IMG/VR virus record: IMGVR_UViG_3300029319_000033
Coordinates: 1 to 63,974 of that record
Length of the DNA stretch: 63,974 bases
Source: a virus
Lineage: Duplodnaviria; Caudoviricetes
Strand: one strand, 5' to 3'
A model generated the notes under the pieces. It was not told the DNA's origin. It did not search any database and saw only the letters and a program-made list of their open reading frames with translations. Shown in pieces: positions 1 through 63,974 of this stretch. The translations under genes were made by a program, and so were the position numbers. Within the stretch, counting starts at the first letter, position 1. Each line of letters starts with the position of its first letter.

Positions 1-101
1 AACTTAGCTTCTCTATTTTTTCTCCTAGTCTCAGAGGCTTTTCTATAACCTTCTTTTCTTCTAGCATCTTTAGCAGTAGTTTTAATCAATTCGTGTTCGT
101 G
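1..101. repeat. Terminal direct repeat (assembly overlap of a circular or permuted genome), left copy
   Basis: 1-101 matches 63874-63974 at 100/101 positions; the only difference is G99 vs A63972. Confidence 0.97.
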
Positions 102-3100
102 ATTTTCAAGACCCAAATCCCAAGTGCTCCAACCTAAAGTTAATAAAACTCTTTCCCAAGTTTCATAATTTTCTTTTGTTGCAGCTGTTATATTCCTAAT
201 TGTTAGTAATGCTCTATCTGCAGGAATATTAGTAAATGCAGATACACCTTTAGTACCAATTTCATATATAGGGCTATCAAATTTAAACCCTTTTGCTTCT
301 ATAACATCTTTTTCAATTTCACTTGTTTTATAACCACTATAAAGTTTACCAAAAAAAGTTCCTATGGGTGGAGAAATTGAAAGTAAATCATTTTCAATTC
401 TAGCAATGTCTTTAGCAAAAATACTATCACTTTGTTTTTGTTTATAAAGTTCTAGAATAGCATTTTTTAAACCAGCTACAACTGCTCCTGTATAACCAAG
501 ACCACCTCTTAAAAATGAATCTACTATACCATTTGTTGCAAAATCAATTTGTCTTTTTAAAAGCTTTTTTGTTTTCTCTTGTTTTTTTTCATCATCCTCA
601 TCATCACCACCGAGTCCAAGAGTAGCAAATAAAGCAGTTTGCATACCAGTAAAAAGTATGTTTTGTACTACAGCGTAGTAAGCTAATTTAGATAAATTAG
701 TCTTCCTATCGCCTCTATTATTTACAAGATCTAAATATGCTTTTTTAGTTAATCTAGCATACTGCATCGGTGTGTTTGCAAAAGCAAGTAATATTCTACC
801 AAAGTGACTTCTCTGTTGTTGTGATATTTCAGCCGGATCTGAAGACTGCTGAGTTTCTTCAGTTATTTGATCAAAATCTTCAAATGCAGCTTTCTCTGCT
901 TCCTGAACAGTCATCCCCTTCTTTATGTTTGAATTAACTCTATTCCTGTACATAGAAGCTCCTCCAAGAGCTATAGCAAAACTATCAGCTATTTGAGTAA
1001 AGAAAAATCCTTTATTCAATAAAGTTTTTATAACACTTCTAGTTTGATTTACTCCATCTTTCCCTTGAACTGCAGCTGAAATTTCTGCTTCAGCTATATT
1101 TATTTTCGTACCTGCTCTTCTTTGTCTTAACTTATCAGAATTAAACAAAAATGTAAAATCTTTCCAAAATTGTTTTTGATTTGCAAAAGCACGAGCAGCT
1201 TGTACTGGGTTGTTATCACTCCAGTTTAAATAATTAACAGATGAAATAGTTTGTAATATTGCAGATCTTACGTTAAAAAACATAACAGTTGCTGTTGAAT
1301 TATTAAGCCAATCGTACCATTTTTGTTCAACAGATCCCTTTTTTAATGGTCTTCTAAGTACACCACTTTTCATACTGTTTAATGAACCTTCTAAAGCCTC
1401 TCTAAATTTTGGACCATACGTAGCTTCTATTTTATTTAAATTTTCTTCTGAAAAAATTTCATTAGAATTTTCTATAAATTCATTTAAGTATTCTGATCTA
1501 GCATTATCAATGCTATAACTTAAATCACTTACAATAGTGCTACCTTCCCAAAATTCTTGAGGTTCTGGATATTTACCATCAAAACTTTTCATTGTACCTA
1601 AATCATCAGCAAAAGCTAATAATTGTTTGTCACTTTTAACAAACTCCACTAAAGTATCAACTTCTTTTTGAGTTAAATCAAGATCAGAATTTTTAACTCC
1701 TTGCTTGTTCCAAAGATATACTCTTACAGCTGCATCTTTATTAAAATTAGTATTAGGTACATGTTCTCCTGTTAATTTAGATTCAAGTTTAAGTTGATCA
1801 ATATATTTAAAATGTTTCTTTTTTATACCTTTATACTCATCTGTTATTCTTTGCCTTTGAGAATCCATTGCTGAAATACCTCTTTTATAAGGACTCATCA
1901 GGTTATATTCAAAAAAATCTTTATGACGTTCACCCACTTTACCTTTACCTAAAAAAGAATACATGAGACCCATAAAATTATCTGCTGATGGTGGAACAAA
2001 AAACTTATACCTACCCTTTCTTGCACCTTCTCTTGTTGCAGATCTTCTTGAGTATCTTTTAGTGGCTTCAACACCTTGAGATTCTTCTAGTATTTTATTA
2101 AATTCTTCATTAATATTTTTAGAATAATTAACATTTTTTTTGTTGTAATATTTAATATTATCATCTATTGATTTTCCATCCGTAATACTAAGTTTTTTAC
2201 CGCTTGGTTTGCTTTTTGATACAGGTATGGGTTTCCCTGCCTTGGGATCAATTCTTAGCTCCCCCCTTATCCTAAATGTACTTTCTCCAGTTTTAATGTC
2301 ATTTGAATCTTTTATTGCATCAAACTTTGCAGTAACAACAACTTTAACATCTAAATTTTTTTGGTTAATTAATAAAGGAGCATGAAAAATATTTCCTTTA
2401 TCATCATCACCTAAGTAAAAAAGACCAGAATTTGCAACTTCAAGATAGGAATTACCTTTTTCACGATAGTATTTTGCTATTTTACCTAAATTAATATCAT
2501 TACTATTAAATGTTCCACCGATTTTAAAATCTTTTATAACACGATCCATCCAAGCTTCTTTTGTTTTGTCAGAAATACGCTGTTTAAATGCTTTACCATC
2601 TGGACCTTTCTCCTTAATTGTAGATCTTTTAACTGGGTTTCTTCCTAGTGCTATTTCCTGCTTATCTAAAAAATCAAAAAATTTATTTAATTGTGCTGGT
2701 AAAACATTTCTTAAAACTGCTTCAAGAAATTCAAAATTTAATTTTTTATTTGTGAATGTAATTTTCCCCTTACCTTTATTATTTACAAAATCTTCATCCA
2801 CTGATAAAACACTACTACCAAAATCTGCACCAAAATCTTTTTTAACTTCTACACCTACTATAATTGGATCACCTACCTTAATTTCTTCCTTACCTTCAGG
2901 TAATTTTTTATTTAATTCATCTATAGTTTTTCTATCTTTTTCCTGATAAACATGACCCTTATAATGTATTTGAATGTCAGGTCTAGAATCATCATTCATT
3001 GCTGTACCCTTAAGCAATGTTATTTTACCATCTTTAGCGTTGTCTATTCTTATTAAATTAAAAACAGTTATTTCTTGAATAACACCACCAACTCTTTCAT

Positions 3101-6100
3101 TTCTAATTTGATTATATTGTTGTAGTATTTTTAGAATTTTAATAGTTACAGCGTCAGATACCTTCCCTTTTTCTCTTAATTTTTGATATTCTCCTTCTTT
3201 TCCTTCTAAAAGTTCTTGAATTTTTTTTCTAGGATCTTTTTCTTTTTTAACTTTTTTAGTAACTCTTTTTGTAACTTCTAATACTTTATTTAATATATTT
3301 ATTCCATCCCTTTCTTTTAATGTCTGGAATTCTTCATCATTTAAATCAAATTGAATGCCCGGAGCTGTTTCTTTTATTGGGAGAGCAAAATTAACATTAT
3401 TAACATCTCTTTCTATTTCTACGCCCATCTGAGCAATAATACCCTCAGAGACAACTTCATCACTAGCATATTTAGATAAATCAGAATCAGTTAAAACTTT
3501 TGTATAAGCATCAAAAGCTAAAGCAGTACCTATAGAATTAGCTAAAGAATTTTTTCTTTTACCAGAAGCATCTTCAAAAAACTCCAAAAATTGTTTTTCT
3601 GTAGGTGTTTTCTTTTTATATAAATTAGGTGATTGAGTTTCTGTTTTTGCTTTAATAGCACCAATATCTTTTGCTGCTCTAGCTTCTAATGGTGTTAATT
3701 GTTTCTTTATTAGCTCAGTAAATATTGGAGTTTTACTTTTTCTATCAAGAGCAACAAGATCTCTAATAGGTAATTTTTCTACTATATTTACTCTATTTGA
3801 TTTTAAAAAATTAACAAAATTTTCTTTAGCTTTTTTACCTCCAGAAATACCACCACTCATTAGTTTTTTAATATCGACAGAAAATTGAGTTTCAAAGTTT
3901 TTTTGAAGTTTTTTCCAAACACTAGGATTTATTTGACCAGTTGTTTTATTATAATAATTCATAAAATTATCTTCAAAATCTTTAACAACCGAATCAAGTA
4001 TCTTTTTGTAAAGACCAGTTTTTTTGTCGATACCTATACTCTCTCTAAATAATGGCTTTTGTTGTTTAGGTTTTTCCTCTGCAACAACTTCCTCTTCTGC
4101 TACATCAACTCTTTCAGTTAACTCATCTTCAAACTTATCTCTTGTAGCAGCCTCACCTTTTTTATAAACATTTTTTATTTTATTGTCTAGCTGACTATTT
4201 ATCCAACCAGATAAACTATTATTTTTTTCTGGATTAAAATTTCTTATGTGAGGTATTAATTCTTCTGTTGTTGCAGATACAAAATCTTCTTCAGAAAACC
4301 CCGGTTGTCTAAATTTAACTGGAGGTATTTTACTTTTTATTAAACCCTGTAAGTCTTGGTTTGTAAAAATATCACCCAATACTGCATCCCCTTTACCAGC
4401 ATCCCACTCTTGTTTTGTAAGTTTATAGTTTCCATCAATATTTTTTTCACCAACTAAACCATCTATTTTTTCTTGTTTAGATACAACTTCTCTAGAAAAA
4501 TTAATTTGATTTTGAACCTTATTTAGTTGTGATTGAGAGAATGGTTTCTTTTGTTTAAGGAAACTAGATAAGTCTTCTGTAAACTCACCTTTTTCTATAC
4601 TTTTATTATACTCTTTCATGAAGTTATACACTCCCTGACCACTATCAAAAGATATTTTTTTAAAACCTATTGATCTAAGTATTGGTGTAAGTACGTCTCC
4701 TAACTTTGTAAAAATATTTTCTTCAAACTCTATTAAAGATGTACCATCTTCATTTTTAATATTTAAAGCATCAGAAAAATTTGTTAGGTACTCTGTGTAA
4801 TATTGACTAGATCTATTACCTTTAGAATCCACAGAAATATCATAATTTCTTTTTTTCATTAATGTATCAACGATATTCCTTTGTCTTTGAGAAAGCTTTG
4901 ATTGGAATTTTTCTACTAAAATTTTTTGTTTAGCAGCATTCCCAGCATATCTAAAAAGAATACCATGCAATACTTCATGAGAACCCACTGTGTTTTGCAA
5001 ATCAGCAGCCACAGATTTATTAACATAAACTACATTATTTGGTGCATCGTAAAAACCACCAGCGTTTTTTATGTCTGATCTTTCTTGTTTTGAAAGTTTT
5101 ATTTTTTGTTCTTTTGGTAAGGTTTTATTTAATTTATCTAAATCAGCTAATAACTCATCTGCAGTATCAAAAGCCCTAACTTGAGAACCAGACTGTTTAA
5201 TAAATTCAATATCTCTTCTTACTCTTCTTTCTCTAGAAGCCTTTTTAATTGCTGCTCTTTTAGATTTATTATCTTTTACAGCCTTTATTCTTCTGTCAAT
5301 ATCTTTATACTTATCTGTTATTTCTTTTATTTCAGATTTAACTTCTGCTAATTTATTTTTTGAAGATACTGTTTTTTTATTTTCAAGTTTTTTAACTTCT
5401 TTTTCTAATTCAAAAAATCTATCCCTATCTGTCTTATCAATTATCCTATCATCTATCTCTGATTTTATTTCAATATCAGATTGAAGTTCAGATACTCTAG
5501 AGTATAAATCATTATCATTTTTAATTTCAAAGTCTATACTCGCTTTTTCAACATCAGTAATTTTATCAGATTCTAATATTTTTATAATTTCACCTCTAGA
5601 AGCTAATCCACCATTTACTTTATATCTACCTGCTTTAGTGTTTAAAGCACTAAAACCACCCACTACTGCAGTTTTTGGAGCACCTCCTAAACCTGCAATA
5701 CCTTCTATTATTATTTCTTTTGTATCAAGTCCTCTACCTTCTATCGCCTGTGCTCCTGCTTCACCCAAAGATCCCCCCACTCCTTCAACACCAAAAGCGG
5801 CAGCTCCTTTTGCAGCTTTTACACCTATTCTTCCAGTGGCACTAGTTACACCTCTAGTTGCTCTAGCAATAGAGGATATGGCTTTACCACCAACTAAGGT
5901 TGCTGCACCTTCGATAACACCTATAGTTGATCCTGCTGCTATTGACTTCATTTGCACACTTTCAAAAAGATCTTCATCATTTAAAAATTCTTCTATAGTT
6001 TCTGGAGTGACTTCCTTACCGGCATCTCTAATTGCAGCCTGCATATTTTGAGAAAACCTGTTTACAGATTCTGAATAAGCATTAGCTGCAGCAAATCCTC

Positions 6101-6770
6101 CTGAAAGTGCTCCTCCTGCAACAGTCACTGGAGCAAAAATACCTCCTGCGAATCCAGCAGCAGCACCAACACCGGCTCCTCCTGTTGCCGCTGCAAGAGT
6201 TTCAATATTAGATAAACTAGCCACACTTTGAGCCATAACTCCAAGAAATCCATCAGTACCTGTCTCCATTGTAGCTTTGTATGTTGCTTGAATTGCATTA
6301 TCACCTTTTTCTATGTATTTATCATAGGCTTGATTCCACTCTTCCATAGCCTCTATTGGGGCAGCATTATTTATTTTTTGAATAGCTTCAAATGCATTTT
6401 GTATATCTTCTTTAGTAGACTCACCTCCAGACCTCATTATTTGACTAAACTCATCTGTAGTTTCAGCCATTGTTAATCCAACCTTACCTCCTTGTGTGAT
6501 AGCATTAAAAGAGTCAGTAAATTCTGTAAATAAATTAAAACCTTCTTCTTTAGACTTTGATGGTTCAGGTTTTTTTACTTGTTTTTGTGTTTCAGCTATT
6601 TGTAAATCAATAGCTTTCTTCCAAGAAAAAGAATCATCTACAATATTTTTTTCTTGATCTTCGATTTCTTTTTCTTCAATCTCTTGTTCCTGACTGTCTT
6701 GTTCGTAAATTTTTCTTGCTTCAGCTATGGCATTTAACCATGAAGAAGTTTCATCATTTCCATTTGACAT
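1..6770 (-). CDS. Giant putative virion ejection polyprotein, 2287 aa; continues across the join to the stop at 63780. Zincin HExxH, sigma2-like and PD-(D/E)XK modules
   Basis: ATG at 6770 (MSNGNDETSSW...). Hand translation stays open to the window edge and is in frame with the 63780-63962 ORF through the terminal repeat. Motifs: GFYD..HEVLH, NFNPEK..SLSGWI, RPDI..GVEVK. Lies after two other ejection-like genes. Confidence 0.85.
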   Translation of the reverse strand, partial: MSNGNDETSSWLNAIAEARKIYEQDSQEQEIEEKEIEDQEKNIVDDSFSWKKAIDLQIAETQKQVKKPEPSKSKEEGFNLFTEFTDSFNAITQGGKVGLTMAETTDEFSQIMRSGGESTKEDIQNAFEAIQKINNAAPIEAMEEWNQAYDKYIEKGDNAIQATYKATMETGTDGFLGVMAQSVASLSNIETLAAATGGAGVGAAAGFAGGIFAPVTVAGGALSGGFAAANAYSESVNRFSQNMQAAIRDAGKEVTPETIEEFLNDEDLFESVQMKSIAAGSTIGVIEGAATLVGGKAISSIARATRGVTSATGRIGVKAAKGAAAFGVEGVGGSLGEAGAQAIEGRGLDTKEIIIEGIAGLGGAPKTAVVGGFSALNTKAGRYKVNGGLASRGEIIKILESDKITDVEKASIDFEIKNDNDLYSRVSELQSDIEIKSEIDDRIIDKTDRDRFFELEKEVKKLENKKTVSSKNKLAEVKSEIKEITDKYKDIDRRIKAVKDNKSKRAAIKKASRERRVRRDIEFIKQSGSQVRAFDTADELLADLDKLNKTLPKEQKIKLSKQERSDIKNAGGFYDAPNNVVYVNKSVAADLQNTVGSHEVLHGILFRYAGNAAKQKILVEKFQSKLSQRQRNIVDTLMKKRNYDISVDSKGNRSSQYYTEYLTNFSDALNIKNEDGTSLIEFEENIFTKLGDVLTPILRSIGFKKISFDSGQGVYNFMKEYNKSIEKGEFTEDLSSFLKQKKPFSQSQLNKVQNQINFSREVVSKQEKIDGLVGEKNIDGNYKLTKQEWDAGKGDAVLGDIFTNQDLQGLIKSKIPPVKFRQPGFSEEDFVSATTEELIPHIRNFNPEKNNSLSGWINSQLDNKIKNVYKKGEAATRDKFEDELTERVDVAEEEVVAEEKPKQQKPLFRESIGIDKKTGLYKKILDSVVKDFEDNFMNYYNKTTGQINPSVWKKLQKNFETQFSVDIKKLMSGGISGGKKAKENFVNFLKSNRVNIVEKLPIRDLVALDRKSKTPIFTELIKKQLTPLEARAAKDIGAIKAKTETQSPNLYKKKTPTEKQFLEFFEDASGKRKNSLANSIGTALAFDAYTKVLTDSDLSKYASDEVVSEGIIAQMGVEIERDVNNVNFALPIKETAPGIQFDLNDEEFQTLKERDGINILNKVLEVTKRVTKKVKKEKDPRKKIQELLEGKEGEYQKLREKGKVSDAVTIKILKILQQYNQIRNERVGGVIQEITVFNLIRIDNAKDGKITLLKGTAMNDDSRPDIQIHYKGHVYQEKDRKTIDELNKKLPEGKEEIKVGDPIIVGVEVKKDFGADFGSSVLSVDEDFVNNKGKGKITFTNKKLNFEFLEAVLRNVLPAQLNKFFDFLDKQEIALGRNPVKRSTIKEKGPDGKAFKQRISDKTKEAWMDRVIKDFKIGGTFNSNDINLGKIAKYYREKGNSYLEVANSGLFYLGDDDKGNIFHAPLLINQKNLDVKVVVTAKFDAIKDSNDIKTGESTFRIRGELRIDPKAGKPIPVSKSKPSGKKLSITDGKSIDDNIKYYNKKNVNYSKNINEEFNKILEESQGVEATKRYSRRSATREGARKGRYKFFVPPSADNFMGLMYSFLGKGKVGERHKDFFEYNLMSPYKRGISAMDSQRQRITDEYKGIKKKHFKYIDQLKLESKLTGEHVPNTNFNKDAAVRVYLWNKQGVKNSDLDLTQKEVDTLVEFVKSDKQLLAFADDLGTMKSFDGKYPEPQEFWEGSTIVSDLSYSIDNARSEYLNEFIENSNEIFSEENLNKIEATYGPKFREALEGSLNSMKSGVLRRPLKKGSVEQKWYDWLNNSTATVMFFNVRSAILQTISSVNYLNWSDNNPVQAARAFANQKQFWKDFTFLFNSDKLRQRRAGTKINIAEAEISAAVQGKDGVNQTRSVIKTLLNKGFFFTQIADSFAIALGGASMYRNRVNSNIKKGMTVQEAEKAAFEDFDQITEETQQSSDPAEISQQQRSHFGRILLAFANTPMQYARLTKKAYLDLVNNRGDRKTNLSKLAYYAVVQNILFTGMQTALFATLGLGGDDEDDEKKQEKTKKLLKRQIDFATNGIVDSFLRGGLGYTGAVVAGLKNAILELYKQKQSDSIFAKDIARIENDLLSISPPIGTFFGKLYSGYKTSEIEKDVIEAKGFKFDSPIYEIGTKGVSAFTNIPADRALLTIRNITAATKENYETWERVLLTLGWSTWDLGLENHEHELIKTTAKDARRKEGYRKASETRRKNREAK

Positions 6771-6775
6771 AATTG

Positions 6776-8041
6776 TTAATCTATTGGATTAAGATCTACA
6801 TATTTCATTAAAAGAGGTAACTCTTCAAATTTATAATATCTGATAGCTCTCATACCTTCTTTTGCTGCTTGATTTGAAAGTAAAAATGCATCTTGTTTTG
6901 GAACATACTCAACATAATACCCATCATAATATATTTCTTCGTTTAATCTATCACTCAAAGTTTGTTGACCTGTTATGTTTTGCTCTTGTATTTTAGTTTT
7001 TTCTTCATCATCAATATTAGTAAAATCCCGAATAGGATAAAATCTAACTAAATCCTTTTCATTACTTTTCATCCAATTTTGATGTTTACTTGATATTGTA
7101 TTAGGATTTTTTTGATTAAACCCTAAATTAGACTGCTGTATAATGGCTTGTCTATATTTAGCTAATAGTTCATTTTCTAATTCCTCTTTAGCTTGTAAAG
7201 AAATAATTTCATCACTACTATTAATTCTGTTAAATATTTCTTCAGTTCCTTCATATAACGATATGCCTGCAACCAAATCATCTACAGCTAAAGATTTAAG
7301 AACATCTATACCACCTTTTTCTATAGTTTTTTTAATTTGACTCATGGTTAAGTTTACAGTAGCATCACTAAGTTTTTGACCTGAATCAAAAGCTTTCACC
7401 ATTAAACTTTCAACGAACATAGCTTCATCTGCAGCTTTTAGTGAAGGAAGTTTTAAATCTGTCATCTTAAAAAAACCACCTCTACCATCATCAAAAAATA
7501 AATCACCTTGATCGTTTATGATGACATTTAATTTATCTGTAAATAAAGCTCCATTTAAAGCTATATTACCAAGATCATTAGCTTTAGAAAAATTTTTGTT
7601 GGTAAAATTAGTTAAATTATCTTCCTTACTTTGACCAAATAAATTCCATTGAGCTTTTAAATTACTCATTGCTTGTAAGGATTGATTCATTATATTTGTT
7701 TGTTCTTGATATTCATCAGTCCCTGCTTGCATATTTACTCTAGCAGTTACAGCGTCACTATATATTCTTTTTTGTTTAAAAGAAAAGTCTTCTATTGCTG
7801 ATCTGTATATTTCTGGTATATTAGAAATAGCTATACCGGGAGGGAATTGATCTATATATCTAGTTATTTCTCTGTTTATTCTTTCTTCAGTTGCTTTTCT
7901 TTCTAATCTTAGTTTTTCTGCTTCTAATCTTCTTCTTTCAGCAACCTCATTAAAAGGATCAGCTAATTCTTTTCCAAAACTAGGATTTTGATACATCCAA
8001 GCATCTTTTGATGCCCTTATTAAACCTACATCTGCTGCCAT
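6776..8041 (-). CDS. Putative internal virion (ejection) protein, 421 aa
   Basis: Long helical ORF between the pilot-like and giant proteins, as in the usual podovirus three-gene ejection cluster; function inferred from position. Confidence 0.55.
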   Translation of the reverse strand: MAADVGLIRASKDAWMYQNPSFGKELADPFNEVAERRRLEAEKLRLERKATEERINREITRYIDQFPPGIAISNIPEIYRSAIEDFSFKQKRIYSDAVTARVNMQAGTDEYQEQTNIMNQSLQAMSNLKAQWNLFGQSKEDNLTNFTNKNFSKANDLGNIALNGALFTDKLNVIINDQGDLFFDDGRGGFFKMTDLKLPSLKAADEAMFVESLMVKAFDSGQKLSDATVNLTMSQIKKTIEKGGIDVLKSLAVDDLVAGISLYEGTEEIFNRINSSDEIISLQAKEELENELLAKYRQAIIQQSNLGFNQKNPNTISSKHQNWMKSNEKDLVRFYPIRDFTNIDDEEKTKIQEQNITGQQTLSDRLNEEIYYDGYYVEYVPKQDAFLLSNQAAKEGMRAIRYYKFEELPLLMKYVDLNPID

Positions 8042-8076
8042 AATTAAACTCTTTTAAACATTATATTTTTAACTTA

Positions 8077-9015
8077 TTAGACTGGACTTACTGCACCTAG
8101 AATAGTTTTAGCTGCTTCCATACCTGCAGCACCAAATTGACCAACTCCACCTATTATATCTGCTCTACCCAGTGCTCTTGCTTGATCTGCTTGACCCTTC
8201 CTCTGTAAAGATAACCCAAGTAATGTTGCATCTCTATCAAATTCAGCTTGCTGCAGTGCTTGTGCACCTCTAGCCTCAAAAACCTGACCTTGAAAACCCA
8301 TTTCAGCACCAAGTCTTTGATTAGCTTGAGCTTGTTGTGCTGCGAGTAGTTGATTTTGTTGTGCTATATCTACACCAGCCATTTGATTTGAAGCAGCCAT
8401 TTGTGCAGCAAGTATTTGATTTTGTGAACCTTGCTGAATCTCTCTAGCTTGATTTGCCGCTGACTCAGCTGCAGTCATTTGTTGTATTTGTGAGGCTTGT
8501 TGTGCTGCCAGTCTTCTATTTGCTTGTTCTTGTTGACCAATAGAAGCCGCTGCTGCTTGCATGTTTTGACTTTGTTGACCTGCTAATGTCTGTGCTAAAG
8601 CAGCTATACCGCTACTACCTGCTGCACCTCTTGCACCAGCTAAAATATTTGATAACCCTTGTTGTTGTTGTTGAGCTTGAAATTCAGCTGCTCTTTGATC
8701 CACAGTTAAATCTTCAGCTACGTTTTGCATTTGAGATGCAAAATTTTGTGCACCTACTGCTGTATTTTGAAGACCTGCTGCAAAATTAGTTAAATTAGCT
8801 GCTGGATTTGTTAAAGTTGCTGCTGGGGTTGCTAAATTAGCTGCTGGATTTGTAAGATTTGCAAAAGGATTTTGAAACTCAAAACTTTCATACGCCTGCA
8901 TTCTTTGATTAAGAAGATCCGCTGCATCTGATTGTTCTTTTCTTCTTCTTCTACTACCAAAGAGTCCCCCAAGTGTTTGTGCTATTCCTCCGATAAAACT
9001 AGGTCCATTACTCAT
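8077..9015 (-). CDS. Gln/Ala-rich pilot or ejection protein, 312 aa
   Basis: Gly-rich N-terminus (GGIAQTLGGLFG), Q/A coiled coil, 7-aa ANLTNPA repeats. Confidence 0.65.
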   Translation of the reverse strand: MSNGPSFIGGIAQTLGGLFGSRRRRKEQSDAADLLNQRMQAYESFEFQNPFANLTNPAANLATPAATLTNPAANLTNFAAGLQNTAVGAQNFASQMQNVAEDLTVDQRAAEFQAQQQQQGLSNILAGARGAAGSSGIAALAQTLAGQQSQNMQAAAASIGQQEQANRRLAAQQASQIQQMTAAESAANQAREIQQGSQNQILAAQMAASNQMAGVDIAQQNQLLAAQQAQANQRLGAEMGFQGQVFEARGAQALQQAEFDRDATLLGLSLQRKGQADQARALGRADIIGGVGQFGAAGMEAAKTILGAVSPV

Positions 9016-9057
9016 ATTGTTTTTATTTTATTTTTTTATTTTAATTACATATATATT

Positions 9058-9396
9058 TTAAGACTTACTGCTTTCAACTATGTCTGATCCTACTTGATAT
9101 AGCTCTACTTCACTTGTAGATTCATTTTTCATTTCAACTTCAGCATAATAACCTACTAGCGAAGATAAGTTAGCCTTATTGTCTTTACTAAAAAAGAAGA
9201 AATTACTTGTTGTAGGTACATCAGCACTAGAATCTATACTACATGTTACAGTTGTATTTGTTAATGCAGTTACACTACCAACTTCTATAGGAGTGCCAGT
9301 TATATTATTAGTTACTACAGCATAGTGAACCGTATCACCTATTTGTAAAGATTTATTGACTGGGTTTGCAAATGTTAAAATTAATGAAGTTGCCAT
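9058..9396 (-). CDS. Tail-associated protein, possibly the separately encoded C-terminal part of the nozzle
   Basis: Directly follows the nozzle gene; ends GYYAEVEMKN..ELYQVGSDIVESS. Confidence 0.5.
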   Translation of the reverse strand: MATSLILTFANPVNKSLQIGDTVHYAVVTNNITGTPIEVGSVTALTNTTVTCSIDSSADVPTTSNFFFFSKDNKANLSSLVGYYAEVEMKNESTSEVELYQVGSDIVESSKS

Positions 9397-9405
9397 ATTT
9401 AATAT

Positions 9406-12400
9406 TTATAATATATTACTTAATTGAACTTTTATTGTAACTCTAAGTATATCTGTTGAAACCACATCACCATTACATGTTACAGAAAAATCAAAACTAG
9501 CTCTTGTATTTGCAAAACTAGGTAAAAGATCAAAACCAGTTAATTGATTATTAACTTGATCAAATAATTTAACATTACTAATTGTTTGAGCATCAAATCT
9601 TTCACTTGAAGTAATTGATAATGTTACACCATTAACTGTATTACCATCTCCTCTAAAGAAAACGACTCCAGATCCAGATATTATATCATCATCTTCAGCC
9701 CCATTACCAGAACCAATTGTAACAGCCTTCTTAACTCTAACAAAACCACCAGAATTTGAACTTGTAGAATCATACAATCCACTAAGTGTTAAAGAAGTGT
9801 TTGCAGGAACTGAAGGTGCATCAGCCGATGCTATAGAACGTAAAAATAAACTTAATCCTATTTCAGATGTTAAACTTTTAGTACCAAATCTTAAAACATT
9901 TAAAATACCTGTTATGGTATAAGTTTGTGGTGCAAATTTTGTAAATGTTAAAGCGACATCATCAGCAATAGTTTGTGAAGATGACATTACTAAATTTTGT
10001 TGATCAGTTACTGTTATAACACTAACTAATCCTACAATACCTTCACCTGTAATAACATCACCAACTGCAATAGTTCCAGAATTATTATCAACAACTAGGG
10101 CTGTAGATCCAGTAATAGCACCATTTTTATCTGCTGTTCTTGTAGCTGAAACTTCTTTACTTAAAACACCTTTTAAATTAGAATATTCAATTATCCAACT
10201 ATTAGGTGCTGAAAATGTTAAAATATCACCAACTGAAACATTATTTGCTGCTAAAAATATACCTGTTTGATCTCCGTTATTATTTAAACTTATATCAAAA
10301 CTACCTCCAGCATTTTTTATTGCTATTGTAGTCCCTGACGGTAAAGTCCCTCCAGAAACTATACTTGAAGTTCCTCCAGATGCTGCTGTTTGTATAGAAA
10401 AAACTCTAACGCTTTCATTAAATGTTAAAGCACTTGTACTTCCATTACCTGCAACAGAAACCTCTCTTTCAACTGTTGAATAACCAAAATCTTCATCCAA
10501 TATATCTCTAGAAGTAGTTAAATATTGACCACTAGCAGCTGTAATTGTAAATGAAAAATTAACTAAGGCAGACTTTGTTAATTCTTTTGGTTCACTAAAA
10601 GATGTGCCAGTTATAGTAAGATCACTTGTAGAAGTTGGATTTGTACCTGTTATACTAACATTAGGAGATATTGTCCAAGTAACTTCAGCAGTTTGATTAA
10701 TAGATACAGGATTTGTACCATTAAAATCTGTGGCTAAAGCAGTATCTTCTTGAGCCTCAACTTCATAATTAAATGTTCTAAATACAGATGTTGAAGCATA
10801 TTCTACTGGTATAGAATACACACCTGTAGATGGTATAGTTTGTATTAATGGAGAAGTTAATGTTCCAAAAGCACTAAAATTACTACCATCCCAAAATTCT
10901 GAAAAAGTTAGTTCTGTATCATCTGCTATCGTAGTAGAAGATGAAGCTGTGATTGTATTTGTTGAAACACTACTTACTCTTAAACCAGATTGAACATTAC
11001 CGCCTTCAATTCTCATACCTGATAAAACAGCAGCATTTGTGTTGTCTAAAGTTATACTAGCAGAACCACTAACAGCACCATTGACAGTATCCGTAGTAAA
11101 TCTTTTTAGTCTAAACTTAGCTCCTGATCTACCAAATATTCTTATAAATCTAGTTTCTCCTCTAGCACTTACAGGTTTTGTTGACATCTCCATGCCTGTA
11201 ATTTCATCGGCAGCGTCTAAAAATGTTTTTTCTGCTTTAGCTGTTAATAATATCTTGTCTTCTGTAGGGTTGTTTGTACTAAATACATAGTAAACTTTTA
11301 ATGTAACTGATGCAGGGAAAAAAGATAAAGTTGTATTAATAGGTATTGTAGCTGCAGTGGATAAAGTTAAAGTTGTACTACTTATTCCTGATACTGTAGT
11401 AAAAGATGATATTCCTGTTCCACTGACAACCATTCCTGTTGATATTAAAGAGTTAGAAGCACTAAGTGATACTGTTACAGAATTATCTACATCTGCCGCA
11501 ACAGAAGAAGTGGTAGAAACAAAATCATTGCTACTAGTGTATTCACTAAACGTACTTTCATCTTCCTCCAAAACATCTAATGTTGGTGCGGATCTAAACT
11601 CAAAACCAGTATCTGCTGTAAATGTTCTAGATATTATTTCTGTACCAAATCTTAATATAGTGTCATCAGGTATTGTAGCATTTAAATCAGCACCTGTACC
11701 ATCTTTAATATTCAAAGCAGTGCCATTTATTGATTTTACAAGTGCATTATCAGGAACGCCTGACCCTATAATAGCCATATTTTGAAATATTTTATTAGAT
11801 GAAATGATTATTGTAGAATTATCACTTAAACTTTGTGCACTTGATAAAGTTCCTATAAATTGATCACCATCATTAGTTGTAGCAAGTTGACTAGTTTTAT
11901 CAGTTATTTTTGGAGTAAAAGTTAAGTCTGTGTTATCAGATAATGTTACACTTTCAGACAGTGTAAGTTGAGTAACTGAAGCTACATTTGTAACTGTTAT
12001 AAACTTAGATATTCCATCGCCAGTAACAACTGAACCAACAAATATTTCTGACGATCTATTGTCATAATTTACAGTTGTAGAATTATTAACATTTCCATTG
12101 ACTTTAGCTGTAACTATAGCAACATCATTTCCAGTGATTGAATCATCTATAGAAATAATTTGATTATTAGATATATTATCTATATTTAAAGTTGTGCTTG
12201 AACTAGTAGCACCTCGGACTAATGCTGTCTTTTCAGGATGTAAAACTGGTGAGTTATCTGTACTTAATCCATTAACTTTTGCATTTAAATAATAATGCCC
12301 AACACCACTATAACCAACATTTGAAACGGAAGAAGTAGTTGTATTTTTTTCATCTGTACTAAATGTACCTGTTACTGCATACTTTGCTGGCTTTGCTGTT

Positions 12401-27167: not shown

Positions 27168-27500
27168 TTATTCACCGATATATTTTCTAACAACAGTTGG
27201 TGTTGCTTTTTCTTGTATTACTTCTTCAATTACACTTTTATAGTGATTTATTTGATCTGTACCAAGATAAGTTTCAACCCAACCAATTACATCAGATTCT
27301 TTCAAAACTGCAAACTCTGTAAAACTAGAAAGATCTGAAGTATCTATTTCTGCAACACCAGTTGTTACTGATGAGTTTTTTTCTGCTGTATCATCTACAC
27401 CTTCTAGCTTCCAATAAACTTTAAATATTACATCTGATTTACCACTTTTTGTTGGGTAGGTATCTACAGTTTTTGTATCCCATGTATATGTTATTGCCAT
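27168..27500 (-). CDS. Tail accessory protein, paralog A, 110 aa
   Basis: ITYTW..SDVI..GVDDT..DTSDLSSF.EF..ES.V..WVE; paralog of 27510-27842. Confidence 0.6.
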   Translation of the reverse strand: MAITYTWDTKTVDTYPTKSGKSDVIFKVYWKLEGVDDTAEKNSSVTTGVAEIDTSDLSSFTEFAVLKESDVIGWVETYLGTDQINHYKSVIEEVIQEKATPTVVRKYIGE

Positions 27501-27509
27501 TTTTTATTT

Positions 27510-27842
27510 TTAATTAGAAAGTTGTTTATTAACTAGTTTAGGAGTTACTTTTTCCTGTATTAATTTTTCTATATCTTGTTTCCATTCATTAAGTCTATCC
27601 GTACCAATCGTACTTTCAACCCAACTAAATACATTTGATTCTGTTACATCTGAAAATTCAATAAAACTAGAAAGATCTGAAGTGTCAAACCCCACTCGGT
27701 GGTAAGATGAAACAGTATTTTGATCTTCAGTATCATCAACTCCTTTTAAATATATATCAACATATTTAATCACATCTGATTTATCATCTTTTGTTGAGAG
27801 TGAACCAACTTTATCTATTTTCCAACTATATGTTATTGACAT
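27510..27842 (-). CDS. Tail accessory protein, paralog B, 110 aa
   Basis: Same length and motifs as 27168-27500; shared DNA AAAACTAGAAAGATCTGAAGT. Confidence 0.6.
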   Translation of the reverse strand: MSITYSWKIDKVGSLSTKDDKSDVIKYVDIYLKGVDDTEDQNTVSSYHRVGFDTSDLSSFIEFSDVTESNVFSWVESTIGTDRLNEWKQDIEKLIQEKVTPKLVNKQLSN

Positions 27843-28747: not shown

Positions 28748-31165
28748 TTATTGATTAAAACCACCTAAATTAACATTATTACCAATCATATCTTGATCAA
28801 GTGATTCAAAATTTTTAGGTGGTTTATTTTTCTTTCTCTGATCAATTAATTCAGACTGTTGACTTGCTTGAATTTTAGTTCTTTCATCTTTACGATCTTC
28901 CTTTTGCTTTTCTCTAGAACTTAACCCAGCTGTTTCTAATTGTTTTAACTGTAAATCATATTGAAACTTTAATTGCATTAGTTCTTTTTTTGCAAATGTT
29001 TCTTGTTCCATTTTTTGAGCATCTAATTGAGCTCTTAATTGTTCAAGTTGAGCATTAATTTGAACAAGAGATTGTTGTTTTTGAACCTCCGCTTGTGCTG
29101 CAACTTGTTGTGCTTGAGCGTTTGCATTTGCTTGTGCTTGTATGTTTTGTTGTTGAGCGATTTGATCTCTTTCAAACTTTTTCCTTCTTTTAATTTTTAA
29201 AAGTTGATTAGCAAGTTTTACATTTTTTATTTGTCTCAAATCTATTGCATCTTCTAAATCTATGCCTTGTTGTGCAACTGCTGCTTGAATATTATTCTCA
29301 AGTCTTTGTTTTTCTTCTTCATCTGGTTCAATTTCTAAAAATATCCCAAAATCATGTAAATGTAAATTTTGCAATTCATCTAAAGTAGCGACATTATGTA
29401 CACCTATGCTTTGTATAAAAGCATCTCTTGTTGGTGAATATTCAAGCACATCCGATATTCTAAGAGATAAACATTCAGCAGTTTCTGTTGTTAAAAATAA
29501 TCCTGACTGTAATATATGTCTTGTAGCAGTATTTGAATTTGCTGCAGCTATTTTTTGCAATCCTACTAAAGCATTTTTGTCAGGAGTGCTACCATCTCTA
29601 GCTTCATTTAGCCCTGTTACATCTCTAATCATCTGCAAGTAATAATTATAATTACCTATTAGTGACTGCATTTTAGCTCCACCACTGCCACTTGCTATTT
29701 CTTGTATAGGCACCTTACCCGGATTCATATCTCCGTCAGATGTCATTGATCTACCTATTACACTACCAGTTTGAAAAAACATATTTAGTGCCTCTTGCGG
29801 ATTGTAATTGGTTCCATTACCAAGATCAATTTCAGCTATACCATCAGCATCAAGATAAACTCCATCAGGTATTAGTCTTGACATAACCTGTTGAATTTTA
29901 AGGTGAGTTAGTTGGATCATATCAGCAAACCCTGTAATTCTACCAACTAAAGACTCTACACGACCTCTATACATTCTTGGGGCAACAATAGCATAGTTCA
30001 TTTTAACCTTACTATTATCACTTTTAGGTCTCATCATATTAGTGGCTAACTGCCATTTCAATAACTTATCAGTGCCTAAAATCAAAACACCTTCATAAAG
30101 CACTTCAATAGATCTAGATATTTTTTCAAAATTAGAATCTAAAACTTCTACTGGAGGATCAAATGTGTCATCTTTAATTAATACTTTAGATGATCCTGTT
30201 GCTGTTGTTTTTATTTTATAAACTTCATTCATATATGTTTTGTAATTAAAATACAAAACATCTATTTGATTATTGTCAGTTTTATCGTAAGAAGACCTAT
30301 TATTAGGCATTGCGTAACTAGTTGGCTGTCTTTCTATTTCTTCTAAATCTTCTTGAGATAAATTTGGAAATTCTTTTTTTAATTCGTTTATAGGTATTGT
30401 TTTTATTTCTCCTACATAATAAATATCTTCAAAGTAAGGTGACTCAGTATAAGAATAAACTAAGTTAGCAGGATCTACATAATCTACTTTTATTCCTTCA
30501 GAATTATTAAATGTATTTTTAACACAACCTATGCCTAATACAGTAAGATCATAATAAAACCTTTTCTTTGTAAGTTCATATTTATTGGCTTCAAATAAAA
30601 CATTTATAGCTTGTTCTTCTGCTGTTTCTATAGCTTGTTTATATGTCAACTGCATGTGTAACTCAAGCTCTTCTTGAGAATCAGGTAATTTCTCTTCTGG
30701 AAAGTTAGCAATGTCAATACCAAAGGCTTGTTTTGTGAAAACATTTAGTTCTTTAGTTCTCATGTCATCTAGTAAACTTTCCATGTATTCAGTTCTTTTA
30801 CTAACCCCATAAGGATCTTGAGAAAAAGCCTTTACATCATAAGTTCTTTCAGCAATACCATTAACAACAATATCCACAAACTTTGGGATTATAGGTACAG
30901 GTCTCCAGTCTAAGTTAAGATAAGACAAATCACCATTAATTGATAATTCATCTTTATATTTTTGAACAGACTGCTCTCCTCTAGCATACAATCTTAGTCT
31001 GTGGTAATTATCAAAATTAGTTCTAAATCTTTGAGTACCATAATCTCCATAAAACCATTCACTTTCAATGGCTTTAGCTACTTTAAGACCATATTCTGAA
31101 CTTATTTTTTCAAGATCACTTGCTACTTGACTAGGAAAATAATTCTTAATATATGAATCAGCCAT
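28748..31165 (-). CDS. Portal protein, 805 aa
   Basis: Directly after TerL; LRLYARGEQ, LDWRPVPIIPKFVDIVVNG, IRDVTGLNEARDG, Q-rich C-terminal coiled coil typical of podovirus portals. Confidence 0.9.
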   Translation of the reverse strand: MADSYIKNYFPSQVASDLEKISSEYGLKVAKAIESEWFYGDYGTQRFRTNFDNYHRLRLYARGEQSVQKYKDELSINGDLSYLNLDWRPVPIIPKFVDIVVNGIAERTYDVKAFSQDPYGVSKRTEYMESLLDDMRTKELNVFTKQAFGIDIANFPEEKLPDSQEELELHMQLTYKQAIETAEEQAINVLFEANKYELTKKRFYYDLTVLGIGCVKNTFNNSEGIKVDYVDPANLVYSYTESPYFEDIYYVGEIKTIPINELKKEFPNLSQEDLEEIERQPTSYAMPNNRSSYDKTDNNQIDVLYFNYKTYMNEVYKIKTTATGSSKVLIKDDTFDPPVEVLDSNFEKISRSIEVLYEGVLILGTDKLLKWQLATNMMRPKSDNSKVKMNYAIVAPRMYRGRVESLVGRITGFADMIQLTHLKIQQVMSRLIPDGVYLDADGIAEIDLGNGTNYNPQEALNMFFQTGSVIGRSMTSDGDMNPGKVPIQEIASGSGGAKMQSLIGNYNYYLQMIRDVTGLNEARDGSTPDKNALVGLQKIAAANSNTATRHILQSGLFLTTETAECLSLRISDVLEYSPTRDAFIQSIGVHNVATLDELQNLHLHDFGIFLEIEPDEEEKQRLENNIQAAVAQQGIDLEDAIDLRQIKNVKLANQLLKIKRRKKFERDQIAQQQNIQAQANANAQAQQVAAQAEVQKQQSLVQINAQLEQLRAQLDAQKMEQETFAKKELMQLKFQYDLQLKQLETAGLSSREKQKEDRKDERTKIQASQQSELIDQRKKNKPPKNFESLDQDMIGNNVNLGGFNQ

Positions 31166-33380
31166 ATTCTTCTTTTATTATTTTAGATGACATGCCTATA
31201 TTTTTATATCTAGCAAATCCAATGTTTATTTTTTGTTTTTCTTTTTTTACAACAGGTGTATATAGATTTCTATTACAAGCCATTATAGCTAAACCACTAC
31301 TTATAGATGCATCAAATTTAGTTCTATTATTTATATCAAACTTAGACCAATCATTCAATGTTTTGTTAAAGAACATATCTCCATAACTACCATTTGGTGT
31401 TGCACCAACATAATTTTGTATGTACATTTCAATCGCTGCAGCATGTGCTTGTTTCATATCTTCACTAGAGTTTGGTATACCACCTATTTCTTTTTCAGTT
31501 ATAGATAATTTATTCCATATTCTATCCGGTCTATTCATGGAATAGCTTCTATACCCTCTTCTTTTTAAATAATAAAGAAGCCTTGGTTTATTGTTTTCTG
31601 CAAGTATAGGCATCCCATAAAAAACTAATGCCATTAATACATCTTCAAAAAATATTTCTGATGTTTGAGGTCTAGCAATATATTCTAAAAAAAACTTATT
31701 TGGTGGAGCATCCTCCATAGAAAATTTTGTTAATCCATGTAAAGCTCCTTTAGAACCTTGACCGTCAACAGTACCAGATATATCATAACTATCACATCCA
31801 AAAGCACCTATATGTTCGTTACCGGGTTTTTTACCGTTGTTAGTTTGTATTACTTTATTTTGCAAATGACTTTGTGGTATCCAACTAATATTAAATCTAC
31901 CTTTTGGATCTGGATAAAATATTACTTTAGAGTCTTTAATTCCATTAATCCACTGAAAATTACCTGTAGTTATGGAAGCATTATTTTCCATAACTTCATT
32001 ATAGTCTATTTGCTCGTATATTTTAGTTAAATTAAATATACTGTTTTTAGTTTCATCTCTAAAGGCATGTTCTTCTGTTCTAGGAAATTGTCTGTAAAAT
32101 TCATTTAATGCATCAGGATCATTTTTTAATCCATCAACTTCATTTTGCCAGTGTTCTAATATACCTATGTCTATGTAATCCCCATAAGGTCCTTTAACTT
32201 CTTTTTCAGGTGTATCAAATACTGGCTGACCGTATTCATCAATAAACCCTTCGTAATTCCATTCCATAGGAATAAAAAGGCTATAAAGCCCAGAACTAGT
32301 CTGCCCATTTCTATTTCTTTTGGTGACATCAGAATCTCTGTATAATTTTTTAAAATTACCACCACCTTTATCTGATGAGTTACATGTACTACCCATCATA
32401 CATTTACCTATAACTCTACTACCTAATCTTAAGGTTGTTTTTGTGACTCTCCAGTTGTGGAGGATGTTGTTTGGTTTCTCCCACTTTCCGGATTCATCAT
32501 GTACCAATAACTTGATTTTTTCTCCATCGTAGGAGTTATCTCCTGTATTTTTCCAGTCGATTGTGGTGTCCAAGCCCTGTAAATCCTCTGTCCTGTCGGT
32601 GCTCGTAATACTCCGTCTTGTAAGTTTTGATGCTGGAACTCTAAAAGCGAGTTCTGTTTTTGGTCTATCCATGCCGTCTTGTATTGGTTTGAAGAAGAAC
32701 GGATAGTTGACGGATATAGGCACCACTTTGTCGGTGAACATTTTCTTCGCATCGGGACCGGACTTGGACAGTATTCCGTACCTCGCATCACTGGATATGG
32801 TTGCAAGGTTGACAACTTCACCAGACGCCATGAATGAGAAGCCGGATCGTCTGTTCTTAAGATAACACATCCCGTAAGATCGAAAGTCGGCTTTACAGGC
32901 TTCCCAAAAGATGTAGAATAATCTATTGGCTTCACGATAATCTGGTTTTCCAACGTCAATTTTACTCCATTGCAAGTACATGTAATGAGTGCCAGTAATA
33001 TAAGTAGGAACACCCCTATTATAGTACCATAAACCCTCTTCTCTAATTTTGAACTCATTCTCTATGTATTCTATATATTTTTCTTTAAAATCATTAGAGT
33101 ATGTTTTCCAATCAAAGATTGTTTTTATTTTACTAAGTTCTTTAGGGTATTCAGTGTACTCCCATTTGTTACTTTTAAATTTAACAACATTACTTTGTTT
33201 AGGTAAGGCTATCTTAAGATTTTGTATCTCATATATATCCCCAATCTGACCGGTCTTACTAATTACAACAACATCGTGTTCTTTGTTATAACCATACTCC
33301 CATTTCTTAGACTTGTTAAGTCTTGATATTGTATTTAATTTAATTGGAGTTACAACCTTATATAAGGTTTGTTTATACAT
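31158..33380 (-). CDS. terL: Terminase large subunit, 740 aa
   Basis: ATPase motifs LKNRRSGFS and LLVHDESGKW; nuclease motifs GCDSYD, LAENNKP, KFDASISSGLA. Confidence 0.92.
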   Translation of the reverse strand: MYKQTLYKVVTPIKLNTISRLNKSKKWEYGYNKEHDVVVISKTGQIGDIYEIQNLKIALPKQSNVVKFKSNKWEYTEYPKELSKIKTIFDWKTYSNDFKEKYIEYIENEFKIREEGLWYYNRGVPTYITGTHYMYLQWSKIDVGKPDYREANRLFYIFWEACKADFRSYGMCYLKNRRSGFSFMASGEVVNLATISSDARYGILSKSGPDAKKMFTDKVVPISVNYPFFFKPIQDGMDRPKTELAFRVPASKLTRRSITSTDRTEDLQGLDTTIDWKNTGDNSYDGEKIKLLVHDESGKWEKPNNILHNWRVTKTTLRLGSRVIGKCMMGSTCNSSDKGGGNFKKLYRDSDVTKRNRNGQTSSGLYSLFIPMEWNYEGFIDEYGQPVFDTPEKEVKGPYGDYIDIGILEHWQNEVDGLKNDPDALNEFYRQFPRTEEHAFRDETKNSIFNLTKIYEQIDYNEVMENNASITTGNFQWINGIKDSKVIFYPDPKGRFNISWIPQSHLQNKVIQTNNGKKPGNEHIGAFGCDSYDISGTVDGQGSKGALHGLTKFSMEDAPPNKFFLEYIARPQTSEIFFEDVLMALVFYGMPILAENNKPRLLYYLKRRGYRSYSMNRPDRIWNKLSITEKEIGGIPNSSEDMKQAHAAAIEMYIQNYVGATPNGSYGDMFFNKTLNDWSKFDINNRTKFDASISSGLAIMACNRNLYTPVVKKEKQKINIGFARYKNIGMSSKIIKEEYG
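32429..33058 (-). CDS. Candidate overprinted (+1 frame) gene inside terL, 209 aa, possible lipoprotein
   Basis: 209 stop-free codons on the same strand; local shift of TerL to C-ending codons; N-terminus basic + hydrophobic + Cys. Confidence 0.35.
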   Translation of the reverse strand: MSSKLEKRVYGTIIGVFLLILLALITCTCNGVKLTLENQIIVKPIDYSTSFGKPVKPTFDLTGCVILRTDDPASHSWRLVKLSTLQPYPVMRGTEYCPSPVPMRRKCSPTKWCLYPSTIRSSSNQYKTAWIDQKQNSLLEFQHQNLQDGVLRAPTGQRIYRAWTPQSTGKIQEITPTMEKKSSYWYMMNPESGRNQTTSSTTGESQKQP

Positions 33381-43409: not shown

Positions 43410-43447
43410 AACTCACCGGTTAAATAATTTTTTGTATAGATAATATA
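43410..43447 (+). promoter_or_regulatory. Early promoter motif, copy 1
   Basis: AACTCACCNNTTAAATAATTT-N7-AGATAATATA; 29/38 positions invariant across three copies. Confidence 0.75.
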
Positions 43448-43494
43448 GGTGTAACAAATAAAAAAAATAAATAAATTTTAAAACTAAACTAACT

Positions 43495-63779: not shown

Positions 63780-63974
63780 TTATCTTCTTCTTCTTCTTTT
63801 ATCTTGATCAGAAGATCCTCTTCTTCTATCACCTTTATCCTTATCTTCATCTAATCCTCTTCTCCTATCTTGCAACTTAGCTTCTCTATTTTTTCTCCTA
63901 GTCTCAGAGGCTTTTCTATAACCTTCTTTTCTTCTAGCATCTTTAGCAGTAGTTTTAATCAATTCGTGTTCATG
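63780..63974 (-). CDS. C-terminal end of the giant ejection polyprotein (continuation of 1-6770)
   Basis: In frame through the terminal repeat: ..HEHELIKTTAKDARRKEG..DKRRRRR stop. Confidence 0.88.
   Translation of the reverse strand, partial: HEHELIKTTAKDARRKEGYRKASETRRKNREAKLQDRRRGLDEDKDKGDRRRGSSDQDKRRRRR
63874..63974. repeat. Terminal direct repeat, right copy
   Basis: 100/101 identical to 1-101. Confidence 0.97.

Follow-up and report, generated by a model that had tools for sequence, protein, structure and literature searches.

In the polyvalent proteins of phages and conjugative elements, processing by a zincin-like peptidase has been proposed (Iyer et al. 2017, PMC5512222). In some crAss-like phages, gp65, gp66, and gp67 are fused into a polyprotein that is described as "likely cleaved" (bioRxiv 10.1101/2020.03.07.982082). 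In phage N4, the giant ejected protein gp50 has an N-terminal part, which has been reconstituted in membrane nanodiscs, a payload in the centre, and HExxH and large helical C-terminal subdomains, of which the helical one is described as lacking known structural relatives (PMC13434306). This study analyzed a 63,974-nucleotide stretch of a Caudoviricetes virus (IMG/VR virus record IMGVR_UViG_3300029319_000033, positions 1 to 63,974; hereafter the window) and a giant open reading frame (ORF) of 2287 amino acids (aa) on its minus strand. The protein and its homologues share an architecture comprising a variable N-terminal part, a conserved core, a variable payload slot, and a conserved helical C-terminal module (C-module), with a recurrent five-residue motif at the module boundaries. 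We propose, with roughly even credence, that it is a polyvalent cargo protein that is packed into the virion, delivered with the DNA, and cut by its own zincin at the junction motifs.

A giant reading frame across the genome ends

The ORF starts at ATG 6770, crosses a terminal overlap of 101 nt, and stops at 63780; the portion inside the window (3..6770, minus strand) encodes 2256 aa and is open at the window start. Because bases 1-101 recur at 63874-63974, with a single mismatch at position 99, the genome is a circularly closed contig with a unit of 63,873 bp. The mismatch between the two copies lies three bases from the end of the window. A naive end-to-start join that kept the overlap yielded an ORF of 2261 aa. 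On overlap-aware translation, the hidden frame of 2287 aa from 6770 through the join to 63780, which the original prediction had proposed from the sequence alone, was confirmed, and no stop or frameshift was found inside it. The motif coordinates given there were all correct on program translation: HEVLH lies at aa 598-602, QINFS at 755-759, NVNFA at 1125-1129, and NVNYS at 1546-1550.

A conserved scaffold with an exchangeable payload

A first scan of IMG/VR identified 9 loci with homologues. A further scan with the C-module alignment revealed that 425 of 595 candidate stretches encode a relative, and 80 of the loci were kept. Homologues are carried by at least 425 IMG/VR loci or viral contigs, and 1219 of the 8000 candidates scored matched at the protein level at an expect value (E) of 1e-20 or better. 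The ORF was complete in 72 of the 80 kept loci and measured 777-4044 aa, nearly all being longer than 2100 aa. At E 0.001 or better, an exhaustive HMMER search with aa 757-1546 of the query protein matched 83 cluster representatives; in nearly all of them the match covered only the first ~370 query residues, within proteins of 2000-3000 aa, and only one reached the nuclease part. With iterated profiles, the core profile matched 162 of the 174 collected sequences. The phages carrying this family are related to phages known from marine and freshwater Flavobacteriia.

The homologues defined the limits of each part of the scaffold. The variable N-terminal part before the core has a median length of 689 aa. 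The core corresponds to aa 520-1124 of the query (~600 aa) and holds a gluzincin and a domain resembling sigma-factor region 2. The payload between core and C-module had a median length of 569 aa (range, -16 to 1227) in the 121 proteins with both parts. Mapping of the whole query on the homologues placed the onset of the C-module sharply at aa 1544-1555. This mapping, together with the payload groups, bore out the prediction that payloads are swapped at the junctions. The HAD-like module of homologue L002 occupied the slot in 70 of 119 proteins, another shared module in 12, and a nuclease-like module in the query and 5 relatives. Of the 121 proteins, 62 carried the HAD motif I hDhDxT; its distance to the C-module was mostly 161-165 aa, with a maximum of 181. 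In the payload slot of a 4044-aa homologue (L021:6320-10000, plus strand), the HAD-like module is preceded by a P-loop kinase (AAA_33, E 5.8e-12; Zeta_toxin, E 3.1e-8). This pairing of kinase and HAD recalls polynucleotide kinase-phosphatase, and the same Pfam pair occurs in several shorter database entries.

Stand-alone C-module genes starting at the motif were considered; the shorter forms were mostly truncated gene calls on short contigs or contig ends, and several short C-module fragments had adapter-derived ends. The split ORF of L024 (9557-9609, plus strand) was considered as a gene boundary at a junction and was found to be a frameshift inside the HAD-like module, with frames overlapping by ~50 nt, which could reflect either misassembly or a genuine break.

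The C-module comprises ~700 aa and is all-helical in the predicted model. A PDB profile search identified no known relative, and VIA, run with the 1131-residue model of aa 1126-2256, gave only generic helical and roadblock-like rows. The language-model leads LPD38 and LPD39 for this module were not confirmed by Pfam. Weak Pfam matches to LPD domains were observed elsewhere in the family, namely LPD23 in homologue L044 (E 5.8e-5, 23.2 bits) and LPD14 in homologue L028 (E 9.3e-6, 26.1 bits), both below the cut-off of 27; Pfam found none in the query protein. In the open-access literature, nothing was found on the family, the junction motif, or a virion-borne sigma-like domain.

A five-residue motif recurs at the module boundaries

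The original prediction had divided the protein at three similar motifs (Table 1). These motifs do lie at module boundaries, in or beside low-confidence linkers, and are kept as a family motif. Segments with a predicted local distance difference test (pLDDT) score below 50 comprised aa 763-781, just past junction 1; aa 1125-1136, at junction 2; and aa 1545-1550, which include the first four residues of junction 3. The pattern [IVLM]N[FY][SA] occurs 3 times in the 2287 aa of this protein versus 3 times in the remaining window ORFs of at least 100 aa (16,445 aa in total), which are small numbers. The motif carries weight because the homologues show the same kind of motif at the same module boundaries.

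The narrow form [IV]N[FY][SA] was rejected as a family rule. Among the 9 homologues of the first scan it recurs at a junction only in L002, and across all compared proteins the N or S form of the motif is kept only by the close relatives of the query (P0002-P0004). It is the form used in the query clade of a broader consensus, phi-x-[FY]-[SA]-[KR], whose second position is K, Q, N, M, or D. Most homologues carry the motif before the C-module whatever the payload (IKFSK, VKFSK, IQFSK, LQFAR, VNFSN, VMFSK). The core ends in R-[DG]-[PV]-x-[IV]-K-F-S-K in many lineages and in RDVNNVNFA in the query, and the variable-length linker past the zincin shows x-[FY]-S-[KR] in many sequences. Further copies lie between payload modules and ahead of the HAD module.

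The strict form [IVLM][KR][FY][SA][KRQ] was observed 48 times versus 13.4 expected in 78 proteins. A looser pattern marked the core end in 72 of 119 proteins; in 74 of the 119 it fell no more than 6 aa from the C-module start, and 57 had it in both places. Motif density was 0.76 per 1000 aa in 69 giants versus 0.29 in the other ORFs of at least 300 aa from the same loci. In 30 of 62 proteins a motif lay 5-90 aa ahead of HAD motif I, versus 18% in shuffles.

The copies within one protein also resembled each other. In 41 of 57 proteins, the two main junctions carried an identical residue at position 2, versus 24.2 in shuffled pairings (0 of 10,000 shuffles reached 41), and in 23 of 29 versus 12.2 when one protein per 60%-identity cluster was retained (0 of 10,000 shuffles). 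Rare variants recurred within single proteins, as in the pairs VKFAK/VKFAK, VKFSQ/VKFSQ, VMFSK/VMFSK, AKFSG/VKFSG, and VDFSE/VDYSE.

The helical domain at aa ~909-1124 is absent from the close relatives P0002, P0003, P0009, and P0024. The motif stands at the new junction in the first three, whereas the nearest motif of P0024 (VKYAK 913) is found ~27 aa within the nuclease module.

Domains of the core and the query payload

The zincin site with a downstream glutamate, as read in the original prediction, was borne out by conservation. In 66 sequences, the glutamate and second histidine of HEVLH were invariant and the first histidine was at least 90% conserved. E660 (YYTEY), 58 residues past the second histidine and in a predicted helix, was at least 90% conserved in the same set. 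Fold comparison gave weak matches to anthrax lethal factor and PPEP-2. Among curated peptidase family models, the best was DUF6782 "putative metallopeptidase" (E 0.05-0.1, 12 bits versus a cut-off of 27), in 3 of 7 members. Foldseek searches of both structure models against the PDB returned nothing at E 0.001 or better, and profile searches of the core, nuclease-like, and C-module alignments against PDB sequences returned nothing significant.

A domain resembling sigma-factor region 2 at aa ~769-881 is moderately supported. Pfam Sigma70_r2 (PF04542) matched at E 0.025 with the whole protein and at 0.0046 with the segment (14.8-17.2 bits versus a cut-off of 24), the N-terminal domain of SigE was matched among PDB sequences (E 0.15), and NCBIfam TIGR02937 (sigma70-ECF) matched at E 7.2e-6 (25.7 bits, below the cut-off of 42.9). 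In the fold comparison, sigma domain 2 filled almost all of the top 22 ranks; entry 7d7d, the gp45-dependent transcription activation complex, is also among the fold matches. The sigma-like module of the original prediction drew moderate support from several kinds of match, but TIGR02937 reached E 0.1 or better in only 6 of 66 family members, although it was the commonest family in that scan, and no sigma region 4 was found in aa 909-1124 by Pfam or by fold rows, which were obtained as part of a larger model. Comparison of the core alignment with the phage's own sigma factor by hhalign gave a probability of 0.16.

The predicted PD-(D/E)XK module in the payload slot is weakly supported: it retained its signature residues but found no profile or fold match. 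E1233, P1264-D1265, and E1308-V1309-K1310 were invariant in 7 sequences. In a model of aa 1126-2256 (1131 residues, pLDDT 72.3), the PD opens strand 141-146 and the EVK closes strand 179-184; this placement would be the geometry expected of PD-(D/E)XK, in a part of the model that lies below pLDDT 50. No fold, Pfam, VIA, or PDB-sequence match was obtained for the module. Leads pointed to GCGC-type restriction enzymes (HhaI, Foldseek probability 0.15; an Atlas cluster with R.HinP1I, 0.90). A word-based search with the nuclease part found 3 proteins, and the module alone as a query against viral contigs found no relative. We consider a nuclease identity of this payload about as probable as its opposite.

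The absence of a virion RNA polymerase, also claimed in the original prediction, was consistent with the data, which fall short of proof. The virion RNA polymerase motif D[FYLIVM]DxD is absent from the giant ORF, and among window ORFs of at least 150 aa it occurs in one 162-aa ORF only. Besides the giant ORF, the window has only three ORFs longer than 700 aa, which encode the terminase, the portal, and the muzzle-like protein. A crAss-type virion RNA polymerase identity for the giant protein was rejected, with no DFDxD motif and no homology. The lack of a candidate virion RNA polymerase and the presence of a sigma gene of the phage's own fit reliance on the host polymerase.

At the protein ends, the Gly/Ala-rich stretch at aa ~170-400 (18% G and 18% A) has hydrophobic peaks at 197-229 and 276-295 and is a candidate membrane-inserting part. 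Arginine makes up 29% of the last 58 residues (aa 2230-2287).

Genomic context

The source is a marine podophage of ~63.9 kb (G+C, 32%) related to the flavobacterial Elemovirus/Callevirus phages. The giant ORF is the last large gene of a leftward structural operon ordered as GroEL-like gene, DUF285-repeat protein, GroES-like gene, large terminase, portal, and then virion-protein genes (Table 1). The portal is followed by tail-fibre-like and "virion structural" PHROG families, the 2878-aa muzzle-like protein, three small genes, and the giant ORF. The muzzle-like neighbour matches PHROG 14478 "virion structural protein" (E 1.2e-130). A trypsin-like stretch in this neighbour (aa 2464-2567) gave a weak PDB match to 2f91_A (E 0.05). 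Tandem 110-aa paralogues at 27168-27500 and 27510-27842 (minus strand), both of PHROG 7802 (unknown function), lie between the portal and tail-fibre-like genes. GroEL-like and GroES-like genes are found in Cellulophaga and Flavobacterium relatives too.

The rightward block holds the sigma factor gene, a PDDEXK-like protein, a primase-helicase, and ribonucleotide reductase. The sigma factor gene adjoins a helix-turn-helix protein and the PDDEXK-like DUF3799 protein. Three near-identical elements of ~45 bp at 43410-43760 (plus strand), starting at 43410, 43495, and 43709, share the form AACTCACC-N2-TTAAATAATTT-N8-9-AGATAATATA. They lie in and just after a 540-bp divergent intergenic region at the head of this block, each 40-60 nt before the first rightward ORFs. 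Their 21-nt core was observed 3 times versus 0.07 expected and nowhere else in the window. These elements look like candidate early promoters.

By portal and terminase, the nearest record is the uncultured 60.9-kb podovirus MW202828.1 (53% and 62.5% identity); other near records are Maribacter phage Panino, 68 Flavobacterium elemo phages, and 15 Cellulophaga phages. The same gene order occurs in Cellulophaga phage phi38:1 (Pervagoviridae) and Flavobacterium phage elemoA, whose syntenic last giants of 1691 and 3694 aa were both labelled "structural protein" by the depositors. The crAss-like phage phi14:2 holds g067-g066-g065 at this place, and its record annotates all of them from virion tandem mass spectrometry. 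MW202828.1 (L090) carries a 3859-aa giant at the same place (741-12320, minus strand) with HExxH sites at aa 1615 and 2500 and without a match to the family profiles. In related phages, this locus seems to hold giants that, at the sequence level, show no detectable mutual similarity.

Table 1. Coordinates of the giant ORF, its predicted parts, and selected genes of the window.
Feature	Position	Strand	Remarks
Main ORF body, aa 1-2256 and two bases of codon 2257	1..6770	-	Start ATG 6770-6768
ORF end across circular join, aa 2257-2287, Arg-rich	63780..63873	-	Stop 63780-63782
Gly/Ala-rich hydrophobic region, aa ~170-400	5571..6263	-	Composition; PHROG 32588 match (unknown function)
Zincin-like metallopeptidase, aa 520-755	4506..5213	-	HEVLH 4965-4979; third ligand E660 at 4791-4793
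Junction 1, INFSR, aa 756-760	4491..4505	-	Edge of low-confidence linker aa 763-781
Sigma-factor region-2-like domain, aa ~769-881	4128..4466	-	Profile and fold matches
Helical domain of unknown function, aa ~909-1124	3399..4046	-	No informative match
Junction 2, VNFAL, aa 1126-1130	3381..3395	-	Aligns with family R-[DG]-x-x-[IV]-K-F-S-K at core end
Variable payload, putative PD-(D/E)XK nuclease-like module, aa 1131-1545	2136..3380	-	PD 2976-2981; EVK 2841-2849
Junction 3, VNYSK, aa 1547-1551	2118..2132	-	C-module start in homologues
Conserved all-helical C-module, aa 1552-2230	81..2117	-	41-48% identity across family
Muzzle-like neighbour, 2878 aa	9406-18042	-	PF25729 E 8.3e-8 at aa 1565-1603, above cut-off
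Portal	28748-31165	-	Leftward operon
Large terminase	31158-33380	-	Leftward operon
GroES-like co-chaperonin	34006-34611	-	PHROG 13932
GroEL-like chaperonin	40544-42109	-	Cpn60_TCP1 E 1.2e-49
Phage's own sigma factor	53068-53844	+	Sigma70_r2 E 2.5e-8; region 4 E 8e-4

Proposed function and alternative explanations

On the basis of these findings, we propose the following sequence of events. The giant protein would be made late from the structural operon and probably packed into the virion, and it would probably be delivered into the next host along with the DNA. Packaging and entry with the DNA are proposed because a gene of the structural operon encodes enzymes and a transcription-factor-like domain that are useful only inside a cell. 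N4 gp50, the gp65-67 block of crAss phages, and the polyvalent proteins follow the same logic. The Gly/Ala-rich hydrophobic N-terminal part and the helical C-module may serve passage or anchoring. Between them, the fixed scaffold offers a slot for exchangeable enzymes, which holds a putative nuclease here, a HAD-like phosphatase in most relatives, and sometimes a P-loop kinase in addition. In the head or after entry, the protein's own zincin would cut the chain at the phi-x-[FY]-[SA]-[KR] linkers, and the freed modules would act early in infection. Among zincins, thermolysin-like and lethal-factor-like enzymes favour a hydrophobic residue at P1', and for this reason the likeliest scissile bond would be the one before F/Y, which would put the co-varying residue of the motif in P1 and its hydrophobic residue in P2.

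Several observations weigh against this proposal. Strict-motif copies were absent from 44 of the 78 proteins, and of the 119 proteins, 45 lacked the looser pattern at the C-module start and 47 lacked it where the core ends. The pattern alone is unspecific because similar strings lie in conserved, folded regions as well: the zincin contains TNFSD, the C-module NTPMQYARL and INFSDNNP, and the HAD module FDFSE. With 55% clusters, position-2 identity was 8 of 10 versus 4.4 (33 of 10,000 shuffles), with only 10 groups, and shared descent inflates such counts; the co-variation of motif copies is thus suggestive. No zincin column tracked the form of the motif used by each lineage (its dialect), mean mutual information being 0.20 for zincin columns and likewise 0.20 for the remaining core columns. 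The syntenic giants of phi38:1, elemoA, MW202828.1, and phi14:2 gave no match to the core or C-module profiles, and tblastn of the whole protein, core, and C-module against 50,697 phage records found no relative. The label of virion protein comes from position, not from homology, because neither these syntenic giants nor the phage records searched matched the family. The sequences show the ORF, the boundaries of the modules, the conservation of the catalytic residues, and the motif with its position and co-variation; packaging, delivery, cleavage, the scissile bond, and the module functions are all matters that we infer. Finally, the virion RNA polymerase of N4 has a zincin-like HExxH domain, yet it is reported to be packaged unprocessed (PMC5512222).

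This N4 precedent is one ground for a rather unlikely alternative, namely that the giant chain stays intact, as in N4 gp50. The motif would then be a linker or docking element, for example a short strand that attaches to repeated sites in the capsid or portal or packs against adjacent domains, and the zincin would act on host targets or be structural. The C-terminal part of N4 gp50, described as an HExxH and a large helical subdomain, resembles the zincin and C-module of the present family (PMC13434306). Motif co-variation would fit any single binding partner equally well, and DSSP assigned two residues of junction 1 to strand or bridge. However, the family conserves its catalytic residues despite strong divergence, the points of module exchange coincide with low-confidence linkers of variable length in which the motif stands, and docking leaves the bracketing of each exchangeable enzyme by motifs unexplained.

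It is improbable that the chain is cut at the motifs by a different protease, either a phage enzyme, such as a possible trypsin-like stretch of the 2878-aa neighbour, or a host enzyme. The lack of a zincin column co-varying with the motif dialect agrees with such a protease, as does the trypsin match itself, but that match is not significant, and scanning of ORFs of the structural module revealed no prohead protease family. Moreover, no other enzyme of the family is universally conserved, and the zincin is always part of the chain that carries the motifs. A purely structural virion part, such as an inner core or ejection channel in which the sigma-like and nuclease readings are chance fold resemblances, is likewise hard to credit, given a sigma signal from three sources (Pfam and PDB sequence matches, TIGR02937, and fold ranks) and clear enzymes in homologue payloads (AAA_33 and hDhDxT).

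The proposal of a self-cutting cargo protein can be extended to transcription, although we regard this extension as doubtful. The conserved core would then supply a minimal sigma factor instead of a virion RNA polymerase. The sigma-2-like module, once freed by the zincin, might bind the host polymerase core and start transcription at the 43410-43760 elements, while the released payload (a nuclease here, a HAD phosphatase or kinase in other members) disarms the host; the cut sites would co-evolve with the protease, giving rise to the motif dialect of each lineage.

Comparison with known systems

The T4 protein gp55 is a minimal sigma factor made of region 2 only. The sigma-like domain described here differs from gp55 in being embedded in a 2287-aa late protein rather than being a free middle or late product.

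Both N4 gp50 and the present family combine an N-terminal part and a payload in the middle with an HExxH subdomain and a large, helical part at the C-terminus. N4 gp50 differs in carrying a T7-like polymerase as its payload, and it is reported to be unprocessed. No sequence or fold match between N4 gp50 and the query was obtained.

The gp65 (zincin)-gp66 (virion RNA polymerase)-gp67 block of phi14:2 lies at the same place past a muzzle-like gene and likewise includes a zincin. Gly and Ala make up 26% of the richest 200 aa in phi14:2 g067 versus 36% in the query. In contrast to the phi14:2 block, the present protein has no DFDxD two-barrel polymerase and has another domain order, with the sigma-like domain and the slot replacing the polymerase. 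Against the core and C-module profiles, phi14:2 g065, g066, and g067 scored E 0.015 or worse, and the best BLASTP match had E 0.012 over 77 residues.

The closest likeness is to the polyvalent proteins as outlined in the relevant sections of PMC5512222: both are giant multidomain phage proteins that combine an HExxH...E peptidase with unrelated enzymatic domains, and both are proposed to be delivered on entry and processed by their own peptidase. The query holds several unrelated effector-type domains and a metallopeptidase in one ORF (zincin, sigma-2-like domain, and payload), as polyvalent proteins do, and the weak LPD23 and LPD14 matches in homologues may tie the family to them. Unlike the present family, with its fixed scaffold, single slot, and repeated junction motif, the polyvalent proteins are presented in those sections with no cleavage motif named, and the whole word "sigma" is absent from the main text of that paper.

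Whether, where, and by what the polyproteins of polyvalent and crAss type are cut has been a matter of prediction since 2017-2020, and the five-residue motif gives a testable answer. The exchange slot would provide a natural catalogue of enzymes that may enter the host together with phage DNA. If true, the delivery of a sigma-like domain as protein would be a third start for early transcription, beside host-only promoters and virion RNA polymerases. The ideas of zincin-processed polyvalent proteins and of crAss polyproteins likely cleaved at this locus have already been published; what appears to be new, from the open-access literature searched, is the family, its scaffold with an exchange slot, and the co-varying junction motif.

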